Source: an uncultured Bacteriovoracaceae bacterium (GTDB lineage: Bacteria > Bdellovibrionota > Bacteriovoracia > Bacteriovoracales > Bacteriovoracaceae). From it: 27,580 nt of DNA. Positions 4,538 through 20,911 of this stretch are shown here, piece after piece. Below the pieces are notes generated by a model. The model was not told where the DNA came from. It was given only the letters and a program-made list of their open reading frames with translations, and searched no databases. Positions within the stretch are counted from its first letter, which is position 1, and each line of letters opens with the position of its first letter. Where the stretch lies: assembly GCA_964012805.1 (NCBI GenBank), contig CAXGUD010000046.1:1-27580 (forward strand), given 5' to 3'. The translations under genes and the position numbers were made by a program.

Positions 4538-6007
4538 CTATCCTAAGGAGCATTGGAAGTCATGACTCTCTATTTTCTTTCCATGATCTTTTAATAATTT
4601 TCCCTGGCAACTTAACGCTGTTGCTGAAGTGATCTCAAGGTCAACCCAATGCCAAAGGTAGTTTTTATCGGCATCGACAGGTTCAAAGTGAACAATCCTG
4701 TTCCCATTGGTTCGACCCTTCCACTTTTTTATGCCTTTTTGATTACTTTGGCCGTCAACTAAGACTCTTAGAGTTTTACCCTTCAGTGGTGCCCTCAGTT
4801 TTTCTTGTATCTTTAATTGATAACTTTGAAGATACCTCAAACGCTCTCCCCTTATATCATCAGTAAGAGAATCAGGCATTTTAGCAGCTTTAGTGCCTTT
4901 TCTAGCAGAGTAAACATAGGAATAAATAAAATCAAACTGAGCTTCATCTAAAAGTTTCAATGTTGCTTCAAACTCTTCTTGTGTTTCATTTGGAAAACCA
5001 ACAATAATATCCGTCGATAAAATTATATTTGGATTTGCTTTTCTAAGTTTATTACACAAATTAAGAAAGTGCTCTGGAGTATATTCCCTTAACATTCTTT
5101 CTAAAACAGCTTTCGATCCCGACTGAACGGGTAAATGAAGATGATTCGATAGCTTTTTTGCTGTCCCATGCACTGCGATCAACTCGTCTGAGACATCATA
5201 GGGATGACTTGTCGTATATCTTATAAGTTCTAAACCTTCTATCTTATCAAGTTCAGTTATAAGCATGGCCAAAGATTCGTTATTCTCTTTCCCATAAGAA
5301 TTAACATTCTGACCAAGTAAAGTAATTTCCTGGATGCCTTGATACTTTACTAGTTTTCTTACATCCTCAACAACTTCCTTACACTTTCTCGAACGCTCTT
5401 TACCTCTTGTGTAGGGAACAATACAGTACGAGCAATATTTGTTGCAACCTTTAATAATATTAACAAAGGCCTGTGGAGAACCATGAGTAATCTTGGTTTC
5501 AATTGAAAAGTCCGTACTTCTATCCCAAGCATTCACTGAAAACTTTCCGTCTCCAGCATAAGATCTAAACACAAGGTCATTTATGGAATCAATCACATCT
5601 GTTCCAAAAGCAAAATCAAGATGCTTGTATTTCTTAACTAAAGCTTTTCCTTCAGTTTGAGCGACACATCCACCAACACCCACAACAAGCTTTTCATTTT
5701 TCTTTTTGTTATGCTTTATCTCACCTAGTTGTGAATAAAACTTTGTGTTTGCAAGGTCTCTAATTGCACACGTATTAAACAATATTAGATCAGCACTCTC
5801 TTTTTCTTCGGTATGACTAAAATTTAGATCTTTCAAATGAGACAAGATTCTTTCAGAGTCATGATAATTCATCTGACACCCAAAAGTTTTCATCCAAACT
5901 TTTCTTGGCGGAAACTCTAATCCACCCAGCTTTACAATTTTTTGACCTGTGACATTATCTATAAAAGAAGTTTCACCTGTATTTTGTCTCTTGCCTAAAC
6001 CAGCCAT
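4538..6007 (-). CDS. miaB: tRNA-2-methylthio-N6-dimethylallyladenosine synthase
   Basis: TFGCQMN..DSE, NTCAIR, GCVAQ, radical-SAM CNKYCSYC, LLGQNVNSYG, HLPVQSGS, C-terminal TRAM region. Confidence 0.97.
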   Translation of the reverse strand: MAGLGKRQNTGETSFIDNVTGQKIVKLGGLEFPPRKVWMKTFGCQMNYHDSERILSHLKDLNFSHTEEKESADLILFNTCAIRDLANTKFYSQLGEIKHNKKKNEKLVVGVGGCVAQTEGKALVKKYKHLDFAFGTDVIDSINDLVFRSYAGDGKFSVNAWDRSTDFSIETKITHGSPQAFVNIIKGCNKYCSYCIVPYTRGKERSRKCKEVVEDVRKLVKYQGIQEITLLGQNVNSYGKENNESLAMLITELDKIEGLELIRYTTSHPYDVSDELIAVHGTAKKLSNHLHLPVQSGSKAVLERMLREYTPEHFLNLCNKLRKANPNIILSTDIIVGFPNETQEEFEATLKLLDEAQFDFIYSYVYSARKGTKAAKMPDSLTDDIRGERLRYLQSYQLKIQEKLRAPLKGKTLRVLVDGQSNQKGIKKWKGRTNGNRIVHFEPVDADKNYLWHWVDLEITSATALSCQGKLLKDHGKKIESHDFQCSLG

Positions 6008-6264: not shown

Positions 6265-6292
6265 AAAAAAAAACCCTCCTTTTCAGGAGGGT
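6265..6292 (-). terminator. Intrinsic terminator of the histone-like gene
   Basis: Minus strand ACCCTCCT-GAAA-AGGAGGGT followed by a U run, about 30 nt after the stop codon. Confidence 0.9.
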
Positions 6293-6321
6293 CTTTAAAA
6301 AAATAAAATAAGTTTTGTTTC

Positions 6322-6612
6322 TTACTTTTTCTTTGCAGCTTTCTTAGCAGTTTTCTTCTTAGCTGTCTTTTTCTTAGCTACTTTCTTCTTTGTAGCTTTC
6401 TTAGCTGTCTTTTTCTTAGCTACTTTCTTTTTTGTAGCTTTCTTAGCTGTCTTTTTCTTAGCTACTTTCTTTTTTGTAGCTTTCTTAGCTGTTTTTTTCT
6501 TTGCTGTCTTTTTCTTTGCTGTTTTCTTCTTAGCTACTTTCTTTTTTGTAGCTTTCTTTGCTGTTTTTTTCTTTGCCGTCTTCTTCTTAGCAGCTTTCTT
6601 TTTTGTTGCCAT
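6322..6612 (-). CDS. Histone H1/Hc2-like basic nucleoid protein
   Basis: 96 aa, 55 Lys, no acidic residues; only K/A/T/V after Met; strong SD AGGAGG; own terminator. Confidence 0.9.
   Translation of the reverse strand: MATKKKAAKKKTAKKKTAKKATKKKVAKKKTAKKKTAKKKTAKKATKKKVAKKKTAKKATKKKVAKKKTAKKATKKKVAKKKTAKKKTAKKAAKKK
6346..6576 (-). repeat. Coding tandem repeat: 42-bp unit (AKKKTAKKATKKKV) x4 interspersed with 15-bp AKKKT units x4
   Basis: Read directly from the DNA and protein. Confidence 0.9.
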
Positions 6613-6821
6613 TCTAAATTCCTCCTGGTGTTCAGTAATTAATTTTTTTTAGAATAAACATAAAATTGTTTTAACGCAATTAAAAATCCACCTTTTCTCT
6701 CATTTCGAATATATTTTTTTTTTAGTTTCCTCTTTATATTTTTTTTTTATTTAAGTTTTTTTTACCAAAATTTTCGTTAAAGCCTTCTAGTAAAGGCTTC
6801 TTACTTCTAGTTCATCACTTG

Positions 6822-6849
6822 TTATCGAATAAAAATTAAAAAACATTAA
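6822..6849 (-). promoter_or_regulatory. sigma28 (FliA)-like promoter for the histone-like gene
   Basis: Minus strand TAATGTTT-N11-TTCGATAA versus consensus TAAAGTTT-N11-GCCGATAA; A15 and A8 tracts lie just upstream. Confidence 0.6.
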
Positions 6850-6959
6850 GAAGTTTTTTTTTTTTTTTGTTTTTTTTAAGGAGCGGAGTTGAAAAAAATG
6901 CCTAGATATTTCAGCAAAACTACAACAATTTTTGGCAGCAAAGGCTAATAAAGACCCTT

Positions 6960-9302
6960 TTAACCAAAAACAAAACCAATTTCATTTTCATTTTTGAGGT
7001 GAATTTTTATAGTTCCACCCTTTTCAAGATTCCCAAAAAGGACTTCTTTCGAAAGTGGACGTTTGATTTTTTCATCTATTAGTCGGCTTATTGGCCTAGC
7101 ACCCATTTTCGGATCATATCCATTTTCGGCCAACCATCTTTTGACCTGAGTCTCGACATTTAATTCAATTCCCTTTTGAGATAGCTTTTCTTCAATTTCT
7201 AAAAGAAATTTGTCGACGATCTTTATTATAAATTCAGGAGTTAACTTATTAAAATGTATGACACTATCCAAGCGGTTTCTAAATTCAGGTGAAAAGAAGT
7301 TCTTAATAACCTTATCTCTTTTTGAGCTTAAACCAACGGAGTTTCCATTGTTTAGACCAATGGAGCCCGAATCCATATCCTTTGCTCCCGCATTGGTTGT
7401 CATAATCAAAATAACATTTCTGAAGTCTGTTGAGCGGCCCTGAGAATCTGTCAAGATTCCTCTGTCCATGACCTGAAGTAAAATATTAAATAGATCTGGA
7501 TGAGCCTTTTCAATTTCATCAAGAAGAAGGACGCAGTGTGGACTCCTATGAATTGTGTCGGTAAGGAGCCCACCCCGGTCATAACCGACATAACCTGGAG
7601 GAGCTCCGATAAGTTTTGCAACAGAATGCTTCTCCATATATTCAGACATATCAAAGCATTCAAAATGAATTCCCAAACTAAGAGCTAATTGTTTAGAAAG
7701 CTCAGTCTTCCCAACCCCAGTAGGTCCTGCAAAAAGAAAGCTTCCCATTGGTTTTTCATTACTTCCAAGGCCCGATCTCGACATCAAAATTGAGTCAGAT
7801 ATGGAGTCTATTGCTTCATTTTGCCCATATATAAGTAATTTAAGACTTGCATTAAGTCTTTTTAATTTGTTTTTATCATCGCCAGCAACTGATTGCTTTG
7901 GAACCCTTGCTAAAGCAGAAATTGTATTTTCAACGTCATTAATAGTTATATTGACCCTTTTTCTCTTTTTATCTAGAAGCTGAATCGCTGCCCCTGCTTC
8001 ATCGATGACATCAATGGCTTTATCTGGCAATTTTCTGTCTGAAATAAATTTTTCAGATAAGTCTACTGCTGATTTTAAAACAGTATTTGAATACTTCACG
8101 CCATGGTGGTCTTCAAATTTATTTTTTAGCCCCTGGAGAATCTTGAGCGTTTCTTCATTGCTTGGCTCTTTAATATCAACTTTTTGAAACCTTCTGGTGA
8201 AAGCATGATCCTTTTCCACAAACTTCCTATACTCATCAAAAGTTGTACTTCCCATGCATCTTAAATCACCCGAGTTTAAAGCTGGCTTAAGAAGGTTCGA
8301 AGCATCCATACTTCCACTACCAGTAGAACCCGCTCCCATGACGGTATGAATTTCATCAATAAAAAGAAGTGTATCTTCATTGTTTTCTTTATTTTTTTTC
8401 CTTAAGCCATCAACAACACCTTTTACCCTCTCTTCAAAGTCACCTCTAAATTTTGCTCCAGCAAGTAAAGCTCCCATATCTAAAGAATAAATCACTGTAT
8501 TCTTTAAAGCATCTGGTACCTTCCCCTCAATAATTGACCAAGCTAAACCTTCTGCAATAGCTGTTTTCCCAACCCCTGCTTCACCAACCAAAATAGGGTT
8601 ATTTTTTCTTCGCCTACATAAAATTTGTGAAATTCTATGCATTTCCTCTTTTCTTCCAATAATTGGGTCAATTCTATTTTTTTTCGCCAACTCATTTAGA
8701 TTGAAAGTAAATTTATCTAAAAAACTACCATCTTTTGGACTTAAACCCGCTTCTCCTTCTTCAACCTTTTCCTTAATTCCTTCATTAACTGGTCCGTCCG
8801 CTCCATGAGCAATATATTTAACAACAGAGAATCTCGTCACACCCTGCTTTTCTACCGTGTAAAGGGCAAAACTTTCCTTTTCTTGGAAAAGAGAAACCAA
8901 CACATTAATTGCCTTAATGCTATCTTTTTGTGATGACTGAACATGAATCGCTGCTCTTTGAAAGACTCTATGAATAGATAAACTTATTTCAGGTTGATAT
9001 TTAATTCCTTTTCGCTTCGCCAATTCTTTTAATTCTTCTGAGTTGAATTGTTTTTCGGCAAGTTCCTGAATTTGGGTTTCACTCAAAATACTAAAGTTTT
9101 CATTATTCGATAAAAACTCTTCTAAATCTCTTTGAATATCTTCGACCTTACCTCCACAACTCTCAATAGTTTCTCTTACGTAAGAGTCATCCAAGAGAGA
9201 TAACAGTAACATTTCTAAGTTTAGATATTCATGTTTAAGGTCATTTGCTTTTTTAATCGCGTGATTAAAGATTTCTTCTAGTTTTTGACTCATCATTGGC
9301 AT
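6960..9302 (-). CDS. clpA: ATP-dependent Clp protease ATP-binding subunit ClpA
   Basis: Two AAA modules (GEAGVGKT, GPTGVGKT), LIGAPPGYVG, IGL ClpP-docking loop, no M-domain; downstream of clpS. Confidence 0.97.
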   Translation of the reverse strand: MPMMSQKLEEIFNHAIKKANDLKHEYLNLEMLLLSLLDDSYVRETIESCGGKVEDIQRDLEEFLSNNENFSILSETQIQELAEKQFNSEELKELAKRKGIKYQPEISLSIHRVFQRAAIHVQSSQKDSIKAINVLVSLFQEKESFALYTVEKQGVTRFSVVKYIAHGADGPVNEGIKEKVEEGEAGLSPKDGSFLDKFTFNLNELAKKNRIDPIIGRKEEMHRISQILCRRRKNNPILVGEAGVGKTAIAEGLAWSIIEGKVPDALKNTVIYSLDMGALLAGAKFRGDFEERVKGVVDGLRKKNKENNEDTLLFIDEIHTVMGAGSTGSGSMDASNLLKPALNSGDLRCMGSTTFDEYRKFVEKDHAFTRRFQKVDIKEPSNEETLKILQGLKNKFEDHHGVKYSNTVLKSAVDLSEKFISDRKLPDKAIDVIDEAGAAIQLLDKKRKRVNITINDVENTISALARVPKQSVAGDDKNKLKRLNASLKLLIYGQNEAIDSISDSILMSRSGLGSNEKPMGSFLFAGPTGVGKTELSKQLALSLGIHFECFDMSEYMEKHSVAKLIGAPPGYVGYDRGGLLTDTIHRSPHCVLLLDEIEKAHPDLFNILLQVMDRGILTDSQGRSTDFRNVILIMTTNAGAKDMDSGSIGLNNGNSVGLSSKRDKVIKNFFSPEFRNRLDSVIHFNKLTPEFIIKIVDKFLLEIEEKLSQKGIELNVETQVKRWLAENGYDPKMGARPISRLIDEKIKRPLSKEVLFGNLEKGGTIKIHLKNENEIGFVFG

Positions 9303-9703
9303 TATTCCGGTTCAAAAGTGCATCTTAGGGGATGACCATTTTTTTTAGACATTTGGTGAACTTTAGCTGTTTTGGACTCAGCTATTTCGTGAGTATAAAC
9401 CCCACAAACACCAACACCACTGTGGTGAACTTTAAGCATAATCTCTTGAGCTTCCTCTAGAGTTTTAGAAAAGCAACTTTGAAGAACGTAGATGACAAAT
9501 TCCATTGTTGTATAGTCATCATTATGGAGGAGGACCTTGAAAAGCTTCGGCTTTTTAGGTTGAAGCTTTACAGGGTTTTTCGTAAGAACGTCTCCTTGTC
9601 CTTCCCCGTCATTTTCCTGTTCCATTTTTATTACAGAAAAATTGACCTCCTGTCCAAATTCAACATTTTTTTCTCGAAATAAGTCCCTTAAAGAGTAAAT
9701 CAT
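9302..9703 (-). CDS. clpS: Clp protease adaptor ClpS
   Basis: KVLLHNDDYTTMEFV, VHHSGVGVCG, HPLRC; stop overlaps the clpA start by 1 nt. The true start may be the later Met (MEQEND). Confidence 0.97.
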   Translation of the reverse strand: MIYSLRDLFREKNVEFGQEVNFSVIKMEQENDGEGQGDVLTKNPVKLQPKKPKLFKVLLHNDDYTTMEFVIYVLQSCFSKTLEEAQEIMLKVHHSGVGVCGVYTHEIAESKTAKVHQMSKKNGHPLRCTFEPE

Positions 9704-19389: not shown

Positions 19390-19965
19390 ATGCGTATTTA
19401 TATACATCAAATCACAAAGAAGCTCATTAAAAAAAGGAACTCAAAAAGCCTTTTAATGATAGCCGCATCCATTCTCTGTTTGACACTAACAAGTTGCACA
19501 AAGCAAACTCTTTTAGAACTCTTTAATAAAAGAGATCCTTTGGAGACTGCAAAGATTAAACTTCCCTCTGGAGAGGTTATTAGAGTGAAGCTTGCGCTTA
19601 CAGAGGAAGAAAAAACAAAAGGGCTTAGTGGAGTCTCTGAAAATCAATTTAAAAAAGATGAAGGACTTCTATTTTTTTATTCAAAAAGAGGAAGAAGGTC
19701 GTTTTGGATGCCTGATACCTATTTTCCATTGGACCTCTTTTTCTTAGATAAAAAGCTTAAAATCGTCGATATCGTTAGAAATCTCCCGAATCACCCGGGC
19801 TTCCAGGAGCCCCCTCCAATTCCTAGGGCCAGAACGGTATTCGCTTTCCATGTTCTTGAAATGAGAAGCGACTCTCATTTGGCAAAAAAGCTAAGCCATG
19901 GGGATCAACTTCAATGGCTTTCTTCTATTTCCCTTTCTGAAATAGAATCAAAAATTCGTCCTTAG
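19390..19965 (+). CDS. DUF192 family lipoprotein
   Basis: GLLFFY, SFWMPDTYFPLDLFFLD, HVLEM, GDQL; lipobox LTSC suggests the real start is ATG 19456. Confidence 0.88.
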   Translation: MRIYIHQITKKLIKKRNSKSLLMIAASILCLTLTSCTKQTLLELFNKRDPLETAKIKLPSGEVIRVKLALTEEEKTKGLSGVSENQFKKDEGLLFFYSKRGRRSFWMPDTYFPLDLFFLDKKLKIVDIVRNLPNHPGFQEPPPIPRARTVFAFHVLEMRSDSHLAKKLSHGDQLQWLSSISLSEIESKIRP

Positions 19966-20911
19966 AAATAAAGCCCAAATGGTCCCTAACCAACTTTTTT
20001 TGATGGAATTTGTTATTTTTGATTAGGTTAATTTTCCTTTTTAAATCCAACTTGTGATCGTGCAAGTATGATAGTTTTTGTACTTTTTTTTCATAGTTTT
20101 TTTTCTGAGAAAAATAATCCAACACACCACGATCTGATAGAACAAGTCTTCCCAAAAGAAGAAAACAAACTAACCAAGATAACTTTTTAAAAAGCCTTAA
20201 CCATTTCTCCTTTGGGCCCAAAAAACTTTTTATTCCATCAATCCTTCTTTGAATAAATTCAGGAACCTTGAAAGTTTTTTTTTGCTGGTCTAAACGACCT
20301 GTCCGAGGTGGCCTGACAACTTCTTTTTTCGCACCTTCAAGGCTATGCTTTTTTGGTATTTCCCTTGTTTGCTTCTCTCGCCGAAGATTTCCCTGTGTAG
20401 CTTCAGCTCTCCTTGGAGGAGGTGGAGATGGCGGCATTGACCTGTCTCTTGCTTGTTGTCTTTGGGTTGACCTCATGGGTCTTTTTGGTCTACTACTTCT
20501 TTGGGTTCTAGGAGGAGTTGCTTGATTATATGACCTCTCACGTGGAGGCTCTTCAAAATCTTCCTCTTCAAAATCATCTTCTTCATCATAAACATCGAAG
20601 TCATCAAAGTTTTCTACTTCTTCTAAAGTATCTCTAAGATGATCAGGGTGCTTTGAAGGCATGGCCGTAGGTGCATGCGAGGGTGATCTTCTTGGAGGAA
20701 TCCTCCTCTGAGGGACCTGCCGATTTTGCTCAACTCTGGCAGTTCTCTTTGGGTTTTCCCGTGGTGGAGGTGGAGTTATTATAGCTTGATTAGAAGGCTG
20801 AGGGTTTTTCTTTGCTCTTTTAGCTCTGTTTCTTTCTATAGCCTTCCTCAGCCTATCTCCACTTGGAGAGAGACTTCCAGGGCCATGAGATGTCCGTAGA
20901 GATTGTTCCAA
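19925..20911 (-). CDS. FtsB/DivIC-like septum formation initiator with long disordered N-terminus
   Basis: TM (WLVCFLLLGRLVLS), DRGVLDY, coiled coil, LVRDHLGFISKDEFLI matching the DivIC-type AR..LG....E motif; TTG start. Confidence 0.75.
   Translation of the reverse strand: MEQSLRTSHGPGSLSPSGDRLRKAIERNRAKRAKKNPQPSNQAIITPPPPRENPKRTARVEQNRQVPQRRIPPRRSPSHAPTAMPSKHPDHLRDTLEEVENFDDFDVYDEEDDFEEEDFEEPPRERSYNQATPPRTQRSSRPKRPMRSTQRQQARDRSMPPSPPPPRRAEATQGNLRREKQTREIPKKHSLEGAKKEVVRPPRTGRLDQQKKTFKVPEFIQRRIDGIKSFLGPKEKWLRLFKKLSWLVCFLLLGRLVLSDRGVLDYFSQKKNYEKKVQKLSYLHDHKLDLKRKINLIKNNKFHQKKLVRDHLGFISKDEFLILFQKGK

Follow-up and report, generated by a model that had tools for sequence, protein, structure and literature searches.

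A short gene next to clpA in a Bacteriovoracaceae genome encodes a protein made up largely of lysine; what might such a protein do, and from which promoter is it made? The gene lies on a contig of 27,580 nucleotides from an uncultured member of the family, and this whole stretch is referred to here as the window. A reading of its sequence alone had proposed that the gene is a stand-alone histone H1/Hc2-like gene behind a sigma28 (FliA) promoter and that it condenses the nucleoid in attack phase, in parallel to Chlamydia.

The lysine/alanine-repeat gene and its conservation

To describe the locus, we list the gene together with its signals and neighbors.

6322..6612, minus strand: 96-amino-acid (aa) Lys/Ala/Thr/Val repeat protein, 57% Lys, without acidic or aromatic residues (from the open reading frame [ORF] and its orthologues)
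6621..6626, minus strand: Shine-Dalgarno (SD) sequence AGGAGG, 8 nt before the ATG; GGAGG is kept in orthologues
6265..6296, minus strand: intrinsic terminator with a GAAA loop and a T-run (-19.9 kcal/mol, z -3.1)
6892..6937, minus strand: likely weak clpS-clpA terminator, TGCC...GGCA and then T7
6960..9703, minus strand: clpS and clpA, the upstream neighbors, with synteny conserved in the family
4538..6007, minus strand: miaB, the downstream neighbor, retained in only part of the family

Translation of 6612..6322 (minus strand) gave a composition of K55 A22 T14 V4 M1 with no D or E, which confirmed the 96-aa, 55-Lys, acid-free protein first described, and the perfect SD and the gene's own GAAA-loop terminator were also found, the latter as a hairpin plus T-run at about 6296-6265. 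The protein is built of units that are 4 to 5 residues long (ATKKK x5, TAKK x5, TAKKK x4, VAKKK x4, and AAKKK x2). These are of the pentamer type that characterizes HC2, in which positive residues are evenly placed and accompanied by Ala, Val, Thr, or Pro; most of the units hold three lysines, whereas those of Hc2 hold two. The repeat periods in the gene are 15, 42, and 57 nt. In the window protein and in complete orthologues, the repeats extend from residue 2 to the stop, and neither has a distinct C-terminal domain after them. The terminator hairpin was not flagged by a simple terminator scan, and terminator-like hairpins also lie 3' of the 12 orthologues examined. A TGCC motif past the clpA stop was considered as a factor site and rejected, as it is one arm of the terminator-like hairpin there. 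The mRNA of the gene is probably monocistronic and strongly translated.

Position-by-position comparison with a congener showed 85 of 96 residues to be identical, with 25 synonymous and 11 non-synonymous codon differences. Because of this synonymous excess, and because the frame is intact in 72 complete orthologues, we consider the ORF to be coding. A non-coding RNA was rejected: no Rfam family matched at its gathering score, the 9 weak matches all fell on the terminator, and the synonymous bias favors a protein. The window protein had no match in Pfam or NCBIfam, and neither a globular H1 winged-helix domain nor an Hc1 dimerisation domain was found in it; it also lacks a histone-fold match, as the sequence-only reading had held. 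AlphaFold2, run on the single sequence, returned one 94-residue helix (pTM 0.48, pLDDT 95) and not a globular domain, and this helix is most likely an artefact of the helix propensity of Ala and Lys. Elsewhere in the window, 19925-20911 (minus strand) encodes a DivIC/FtsB-like septum protein with a Pro/Arg-rich, acidic N-terminal extension of ~240 residues.

The family has 30 clpA loci in our collection, among which 25 carry an SD-led Lys/Ala-repeat (K/A) ORF within 1.5 kb, 4 are cut off by a contig edge, and 1 has the ORF beyond an inserted gene. Thus, the K/A gene follows clpA in 26/26 informative Bacteriovoracaceae loci, and the stand-alone gene 3' of clpA is real and conserved. The inserted gene (L118:5619-7964, minus strand, genome G005) encodes 781 aa, has no Pfam match, and sits between clpA and the K/A gene. 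Its locus adjoins a gene that is named as a Halobacteriovorax marinus protein in the collection, and therefore a cultured species carries the K/A gene. In a wider set of 80 loci, drawn from the first clpA set and from about 150 matches to the promoter pattern described below, 79 loci match that pattern, and a K/A ORF comes next in 79/79. The 72 complete orthologues are 20 to 180 aa long, contain 42 to 66% K+R and zero D/E, and average 53% K, 23% A, 11% T, 8% V, and 0.5% Pro. They use only M, A, T, K, V, R, P, and S, arranged in short K-bounded units. A length that is free while charge density is fixed fits action by charge, not by a folded site.

Two loci depart from this arrangement. At one orthologous clpA locus (L087:5158-5529, plus strand), the same promoter precedes a 123-aa K/A-SWIB fusion in place of a bare repeat, and this is either a natural fusion or an assembly join of two repeat genes. 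Genome G070 (L222) has a second, paralogous 82-aa K/A gene with a TTG-N17-TATCCT-like promoter and a FliA-type site upstream.

Predicted promoters upstream of the gene

The DNA between clpA and the gene holds the following predicted elements.

6651..6686, minus strand: predicted main sigma70-type promoter (T-tract 6686-6682, -35 TTGCGT 6679-6674, -10 TATTCT 6656-6651)
6702..6709, minus strand: TTCGAAAT, which may be what remains of the -10 half of a proximal FliA site as found in the family; no -35 half matches it
6780..6799, minus strand: hairpin in the putative distal transcript's leader; the congener has an altered version
6822..6848, minus strand: distal FliA-like site TAATGTTT-N11-TTCGATAA, genus-specific, with a predicted start near 6815

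The proximal promoter lies 67 nt upstream of the gene and was missed both by the sequence-only reading and by a simple promoter scan. Its TTGCGT and TATTCT are separated by 17 nt, including TGTT, and its predicted start is near 6644. Alignment of upstream DNA revealed a T-tract, TTGC(G/A)(T/C), exactly 17 nt, and TAnnnT in 25/25 loci, with the promoter ending 30 to 62 nt before the ATG. This pattern combined with an SD matched 150/201 family genomes, nearly all in single copy, compared with 2 matches for the reversed control; the count includes the training genomes, and the misses cover incomplete genomes and leaders that exceed the pattern length. The tRNA genes of the host genome are preceded by an identical layout (TTG-17 nt-TAnnnT), and we thus read the element as a sigma70-type promoter with an UP-like tract that RpoD itself probably uses. 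The invariance of TTGC, TG, and the T-tract goes beyond what RpoD would be expected to require and may mark a regulator site. Two other assignments were rejected here. A sigma54 promoter was suggested by GG-N10-GC at about 6689-6676 in the window and its congener, but the GG is lost in other loci; a DnaA box in the -10 region would consist of TTATCC without ACA after it.

The FliA-like motif that had been reported ~210 nt upstream is indeed present (6848-6822), ends 210 nt before the ATG, and is 1 of 4 sites in the window with at most 3 mismatches to the E. coli sigma28 consensus. The host genome encodes fliA and nine flagellin-domain genes. To score such sites, we used a FliA matrix trained solely on 51 flagellin upstream regions. 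It yields T(A/C)AAG-N16-CGA, which is close to the published Bdellovibrio motif, TTAAG-N16-CCGATA (PMC3627812). The distal site scored 10.9 bits, a value that 4.6% of 1,973 upstream regions from the genome attain, as do 3.4% of their antisense strands, and its shuffle p values were 0.049 and 0.016; the site is modestly above chance. It has the CGA core and the 11-nt spacer of a FliA promoter, and its -35 is TAATG, not the T[AC]AAG type. In the congener (the sole one with the locus), the -10 box and the 11-nt spacing are kept and the -35 is weaker, giving 6.3 bits (p 0.26-0.34). The leader hairpin may act either as a 5' stabiliser or as a terminator that blocks the distal promoter; in the congener, a U-run follows the hairpin between the distal site and the gene. 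The hairpin was also considered as a possible REP-like repeat; its strict form has 7 copies in 4.47 Mb.

FliA-type sites are also found closer to the gene in the family. T[ATC]AAG-N16/17-CGA occurs 15 to 70 nt upstream of the sigma70 -35 in 20/50 genera (shuffles, mean 0.4 and maximum 3; antisense, 3), a range that was picked after viewing the data and a count over related genera that are not independent; the strict site is missing in 30/50. Scored with the matrix at one locus per genus, 17/50 reached at least 9 bits (antisense, 5), and 14/50 had p<=0.05 against shuffles. On a ClpA tree, a quick one with 25 ingroup rows, both main branches include members with such sites. In the window, TTCGAAAT lies 22 nt upstream of the sigma70 -35, as FliA sites in relatives cluster at 22 to 25 nt, and it is lost in the congener. 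Judged from sequence, the window's genus is without the proximal FliA site, retaining at most a putative -10 remnant, and has the distal site instead. Only two spacings are seen among the family's sites, the longer in 16 and the shorter in 5, compared with 4 and 18, respectively, of the 51 flagellins; this reversed preference suggests a weaker promoter. Genera with long proteins (over 45 aa) have a FliA site in 19/33 cases, and those with short proteins have one in 0/13. We did not count this association, as genera that share the label group together on the tree (4 changes versus 8.4 when shuffled).

Collectively, these data make a two-promoter design likely, as opposed to one that depends on FliA only. 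The proposed sigma28 link thus survives in part: a FliA-type site exists at the family level (20/50 genera), and the distal site originally named is genus-specific and not the family's conserved one. The sequence-only reading had itself named a sigma70 promoter near the gene as an observation that would speak against its circuit, and such a promoter is predicted next to the gene in 25/25 loci. Among other genes of the host genome, a ClpP-like gene (by sequence; G000:C37:4255-4878) has one of the strongest FliA-type sites, at 15.7 bits; in B. bacteriovorus, clpP and clpA RNA are attack-phase enriched (PMC3627812 supplement).

Bd3800, the likely Bdellovibrio counterpart

A start-of-gene pattern applied to 301 genomes of the phylum revealed that other families, too, have stand-alone K/A genes, of 24 to 30 aa. 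In two families, the Bdellovibrio-type one among them, the K/A gene is flanked on one side by an mlaD/outer-membrane gene pair and on the other by a pair whose last member is a T2SSF-domain gene. This counterpart locus is present in 29/30 genomes searched, and 36/36 counterpart loci hold a K/A gene of 24 to 55 aa that has a strong SD and a terminator and usually also T-tract-TTGACG; 2/36 show the strict FliA pattern. Gene order in a published B. bacteriovorus table places Bd3800 at this position, and its length of 132 nt and GC content of 0.303 equal those of four counterpart loci. By synteny, length, and GC content, Bd3800 (43 aa, annotated as a hypothetical protein) is likely the K/A micro-protein of the Bdellovibrio family. 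Like the window gene, it has its own predicted T-tract plus TTG promoter, SD, and terminator; unlike the window gene, it sits at the mlaD/outer-membrane locus and not at clpA, is shorter, and has a -35 of TTGACG. The shared T-tract-TTG layout hints at a common origin of Bd3800 and the clpA-linked gene, for which low-complexity sequence cannot decide between orthologue and analogue, and the loci differ.

Several features were observed beside these micro-genes. In L236-L256, a conserved GCA-N7-TGC palindrome lies just upstream of the T-tract and is a possible regulator site, and a CAA-repeat leader, possibly a translation enhancer, precedes the SD. Stand-alone K/A genes (about 26 to 121 aa) occur in six further families of the phylum (L093, L095, L103-L105, L107, L110, L111, and L113) at unrelated loci, two of them with a TTGCGC-N17-TACAnT promoter.

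Published expression data are available for Bd3800 in B. bacteriovorus. By RNA sequencing (RNA-seq), its level was 6,803 RPKM during growth, compared with 270 in attack phase, a 24-fold difference, where the RPKM of a 132-nt gene can be inflated (PMC3627812 supplement). The same data gave 5,041 and 11 RPKM for the histone Bd0055 and 3,516 and 6 for HU (Bd0711), and the controls behaved as expected (growth/attack, fliA 104/990 and rpoD 1,834/19). Bd3800 is absent from the attack-phase transcription start site (TSS) table in the available part of that supplement. On microarrays, it was unchanged between attack phase and 30-min bdelloplasts (1.48, 1.03; p 0.45), with a slight decrease during host-independent growth (0.80, 0.78; p 0.053) (PMC2797640), a profile that fits constant expression better than growth-phase enrichment. 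RNA-seq and microarray disagree on growth enrichment of Bd3800, and neither shows it to be attack-phase specific. Bd3800 was not found in the supplementary data of PMC10627809 (7/10 files covered, part of them incompletely), and we found no mention of it in the literature outside subscription journals.

These data bear on two alternatives. The first is the original proposal of a FliA-only, attack-phase-specific condenser driven from 6848-6822, parallel to sigma28-hctB of Chlamydia. The 10.9-bit distal site, whose -10 box and spacing the congener retains, the enrichment of FliA-type sites at the family level, and the presence of FliA motifs in 92/140 attack-phase promoters of B. bacteriovorus (PMC3627812) are what it can draw on. 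Against these stand a universal sigma70-type promoter adjoining the gene, 30/50 genera without a strict FliA site, a hairpin that separates the distal site from the gene and in the congener is followed by a U-run, the weak 6.3-bit site of the congener, and the lack of attack-phase specificity of Bd3800 in either of two data sets, together with the absence of an attack-phase TSS for it. We consider this circuit very improbable, and its attack-phase-only component is not supported. The second alternative takes the protein to be a DNA-binding accessory comparable to Bordetella BpH1: minor, dispensable, constitutively made, and uninvolved in the life-cycle switch. The drift of protein length from 20 to 180 aa, the flat microarray profile of Bd3800, and the normal appearance of bpH1 knockouts (PMC2848022) speak for such an accessory, but the gene is found at every informative locus in two families, its single-copy promoter is nearly invariant, and a second, stage-specific promoter type is retained in many genera; we regard it as unlikely. 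If the gene is dispensable, it would be one more H1-like accessory of modest weight.

Known lysine-rich proteins, a proposed role in chromosome packing, and detection

Chlamydia hctB is linked to sigma28 in an organism that, like Bdellovibrio, has a condensed dispersal form. Its product, Hc2, resembles the window family in having Lys-rich, pentamer-like repeats with Ala, Val, and Thr and a length that varies by repeat gain and loss (PMC2848022). Unlike Hc2, with two positive residues in five, the window family has ~55% K/R; it is as short as 20 aa, lacks the C-terminal domain of Hc2, and has a main predicted promoter of the sigma70 type, unlike sigma28-linked hctB. Neither the window protein nor its L118 orthologue matched PF07382 (HC2; gathering score, 40 bits), and the L093 analogue reached 23.5 bits. 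This test is conservative because HMMER down-weights biased sequence; the Hc2-like label, taken as Pfam HC2 membership, is not supported. BpH1 of Bordetella and the Hc2-like proteins of Burkholderia and Ralstonia are likewise stand-alone, with lysine-rich pentamers and variable size, and BpH1 is expressed in growth (PMC2848022). The window family is shorter (Burkholderia, 149 to 231 aa; BpH1, 182 to 206 aa) and more highly charged, and it differs further in being acid-free in 72/72 complete members and in having a second FliA-type promoter in part, with homology compared by Pfam alone. The KPAA tails of Pseudomonas AlgP and PhaF are similar in that their K/A repeats resemble an H1 tail and attach to DNA or other polyanions (PMC9239181), but these are Pro-rich tails on folded N-terminal domains, whereas the window family has no folded domain and 0.5% Pro. 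Bd0055, the most abundant protein of attack-phase nucleoids (PMC10627809), is a candidate nucleoid packer in the same phylum whose RNA is growth-phase enriched, as that of Bd3800 is by RNA-seq; proteins of the Bd0055/Bd3044 type have a histone fold, which the window protein lacks. By analogy, then, the protein probably works like the bacterial H1-like repeat proteins (Hc2, BpH1, and the AlgP tail), yet it is not an HC2 member by Pfam.

The explanation that we favor, at somewhat better than an even chance, is that a bare K/A-repeat polycation probably binds chromosomal DNA irrespective of its sequence and probably contributes to its packing, and that it is expressed mainly from the predicted sigma70-type promoter, with a predicted FliA promoter second in part of the family. 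The packing function rests on composition and analogy, and the promoters are predictions. With a net charge of about +55 and no sequence-reading fold, the chain would attach to polyanions electrostatically and, like the tail of linker histone H1, would neutralise DNA phosphates and bridge segments. From the chemistry of H1 tails, it would be expected to become helical on DNA. Bulk synthesis would occur during intraperiplasmic growth, as for the RNA of Bd3800 and Bd0055, and the polycation would pass to progeny as nucleoids condense. The FliA site, where present, would keep synthesis on in attack phase, when rpoD RNA is low. Nucleoids loosen after prey entry and condense again at septation (PMC10627809), and therefore a packing protein must be made in growth phase. 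ClpS-ClpA, encoded next door, could remove the polycation on prey entry, an idea that is speculative because the gene is transcribed on its own and its likely counterpart in Bdellovibrio occupies a different locus.

Analogues provide mixed guidance on packing. Hc1 and Hc2 condense DNA in E. coli (PMC2848022), and KPAA peptides bind DNA in vitro (PMC9239181). Knockdown of chlamydial hctA/hctB left nucleoid condensation intact (PMC13317200), and Bordetella bpH1 is dispensable, with knockouts that look normal (PMC2848022). Thus, even close analogues are not proven condensers, and the analogy is weakened.

K/A repeats also occur as tails on other proteins. At least 8 other proteins of the host genome (G000 contigs C26, C7/C58, C8, C41, C89, C1, C49, and C86; L265-L272) have one, with several of these contigs breaking off inside the tail repeats. 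The set includes a histone-fold protein (on C26, with a weak PF00808 match), a SWIB protein (probably split over C7 and C58), and several with acidic C-termini and no Pfam match. Across these genomes, the commonest identified partners of the tail are histone fold and SWIB domains. The presence of the module on histone-fold and SWIB proteins, together with the SWIB fusion at the orthologous locus, points to chromatin.

A bare polycation, however, has no means to pick DNA among polyanions, and it might act mainly on RNA, ribosomes, or polyphosphate, as a translation damper or a condensate/granule scaffold, and not in chromosome packing. Hc2 has a stronger affinity for RNA than for DNA and is a repressor of translation (PMC2848022), AlgP, itself a K/A-repeat protein, organises polyphosphate granules (PMC9239181), and the tail is also found on non-chromatin proteins, such as an Fe-S fumarase (L090). 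The identity of the commonest tail partners argues the other way, and high growth-phase Bd3800 RNA is awkward for a translation inhibitor, which leaves this alternative rather unlikely, if less so than a dispensable accessory. Poly-lysine-like peptides damage Gram-negative membranes, and the host is a predator, so that a cationic membrane-active peptide aimed at prey was also considered. The protein has neither a signal peptide nor a hydrophobic face, and the module also forms the tail of cytoplasmic proteins; we consider a prey-directed peptide extremely unlikely. As separate observations, the fumarase of L090 (490-1809, minus strand; an Fe-S fumarate hydratase, PF05681), which is encoded in a relative, carries a long N-terminal K/A repeat, and a conserved 290- to 400-aa family (L265:154-1152, L206, L208, L209, L212, L214-L218, L221, and L223) combines a long K/A N-terminal tail with an acidic C-terminus, with no Pfam match in the two members scanned.

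Returning to the proposed chromosome-packing polycation, the histone Bd0055 is no more than a proposed contributor to the compact attack-phase nucleoid (PMC10627809), and the K/A protein would be a second candidate. In its strongest form, which we offer tentatively and consider doubtful, a protamine-like bare polycation (Bd3800 and the clpA-linked gene) would be a second major chromatin protein beside the histone, abundant and invisible to trypsin, that drives extreme attack-phase compaction, is sustained by FliA in lineages with long repeats, and is removed from the chromosome when prey is entered, with ClpS-ClpA as a possible agent. The gene is conserved in two predator families, the genetically tractable model has a locus tag for it (Bd3800), and growth-phase RNA of Bd3800 exceeds that of Bd0055. 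The predicted sigma70 and FliA tandem would show how a housekeeping gene stays on across the switch between growth and attack.

The original reading had anticipated that the protein would be missed by tryptic proteomics, and this was borne out: the longest tryptic piece of the window protein is 4 aa, and it has no aromatic residue. With pieces of at most 4 residues, the LysC/trypsin nucleoid proteome that found Bd0055 could not show the polycation, which places this second candidate beyond the reach of existing proteomics of that kind. No such protein is mentioned in the available portions of PMC11789641, PMC3526173, PMC13147790, and PMC12622784, and we found no description of such a gene family in the literature outside subscription journals. 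We therefore describe a real, conserved, and apparently undescribed H1-like polycation gene with a corrected regulatory model. Exact 57- to 102-nt pieces of the window gene occur in RNA-library contigs of 3 studies, which indicates presence only. Among the RNA pieces listed (7 distinct runs), none fits well within 6623-6914, where gaps carry no weight and the start cannot be placed; miaB is uncovered by RNA contigs in the 4 runs examined, and depth cannot rank genes.

The companion claim that annotation easily misses such genes was borne out only in part. Protein searches are nearly blind to them, with 26/151 genomes matched and known carriers such as G015 missed, but Bd3800 is annotated, and absence from a look-up is no proof. 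An exact look-up found 0/14 complete K/A genes (with starts as tried and one contig-cut sequence excluded), whereas it found 5/5 neighbors and the SWIB fusion; the missing genes may reflect a low-complexity filter of the collection. A search of 5.8 billion proteins gave 9 matches, 8 of which are K/A-SWIB fusions, and the clusters returned by the ESM Atlas were unnamed and of low recognition; HC2 was assigned to 15% of one of them. The near-invariant single-copy promoter provides a practical probe for such a gene where protein searches fail.
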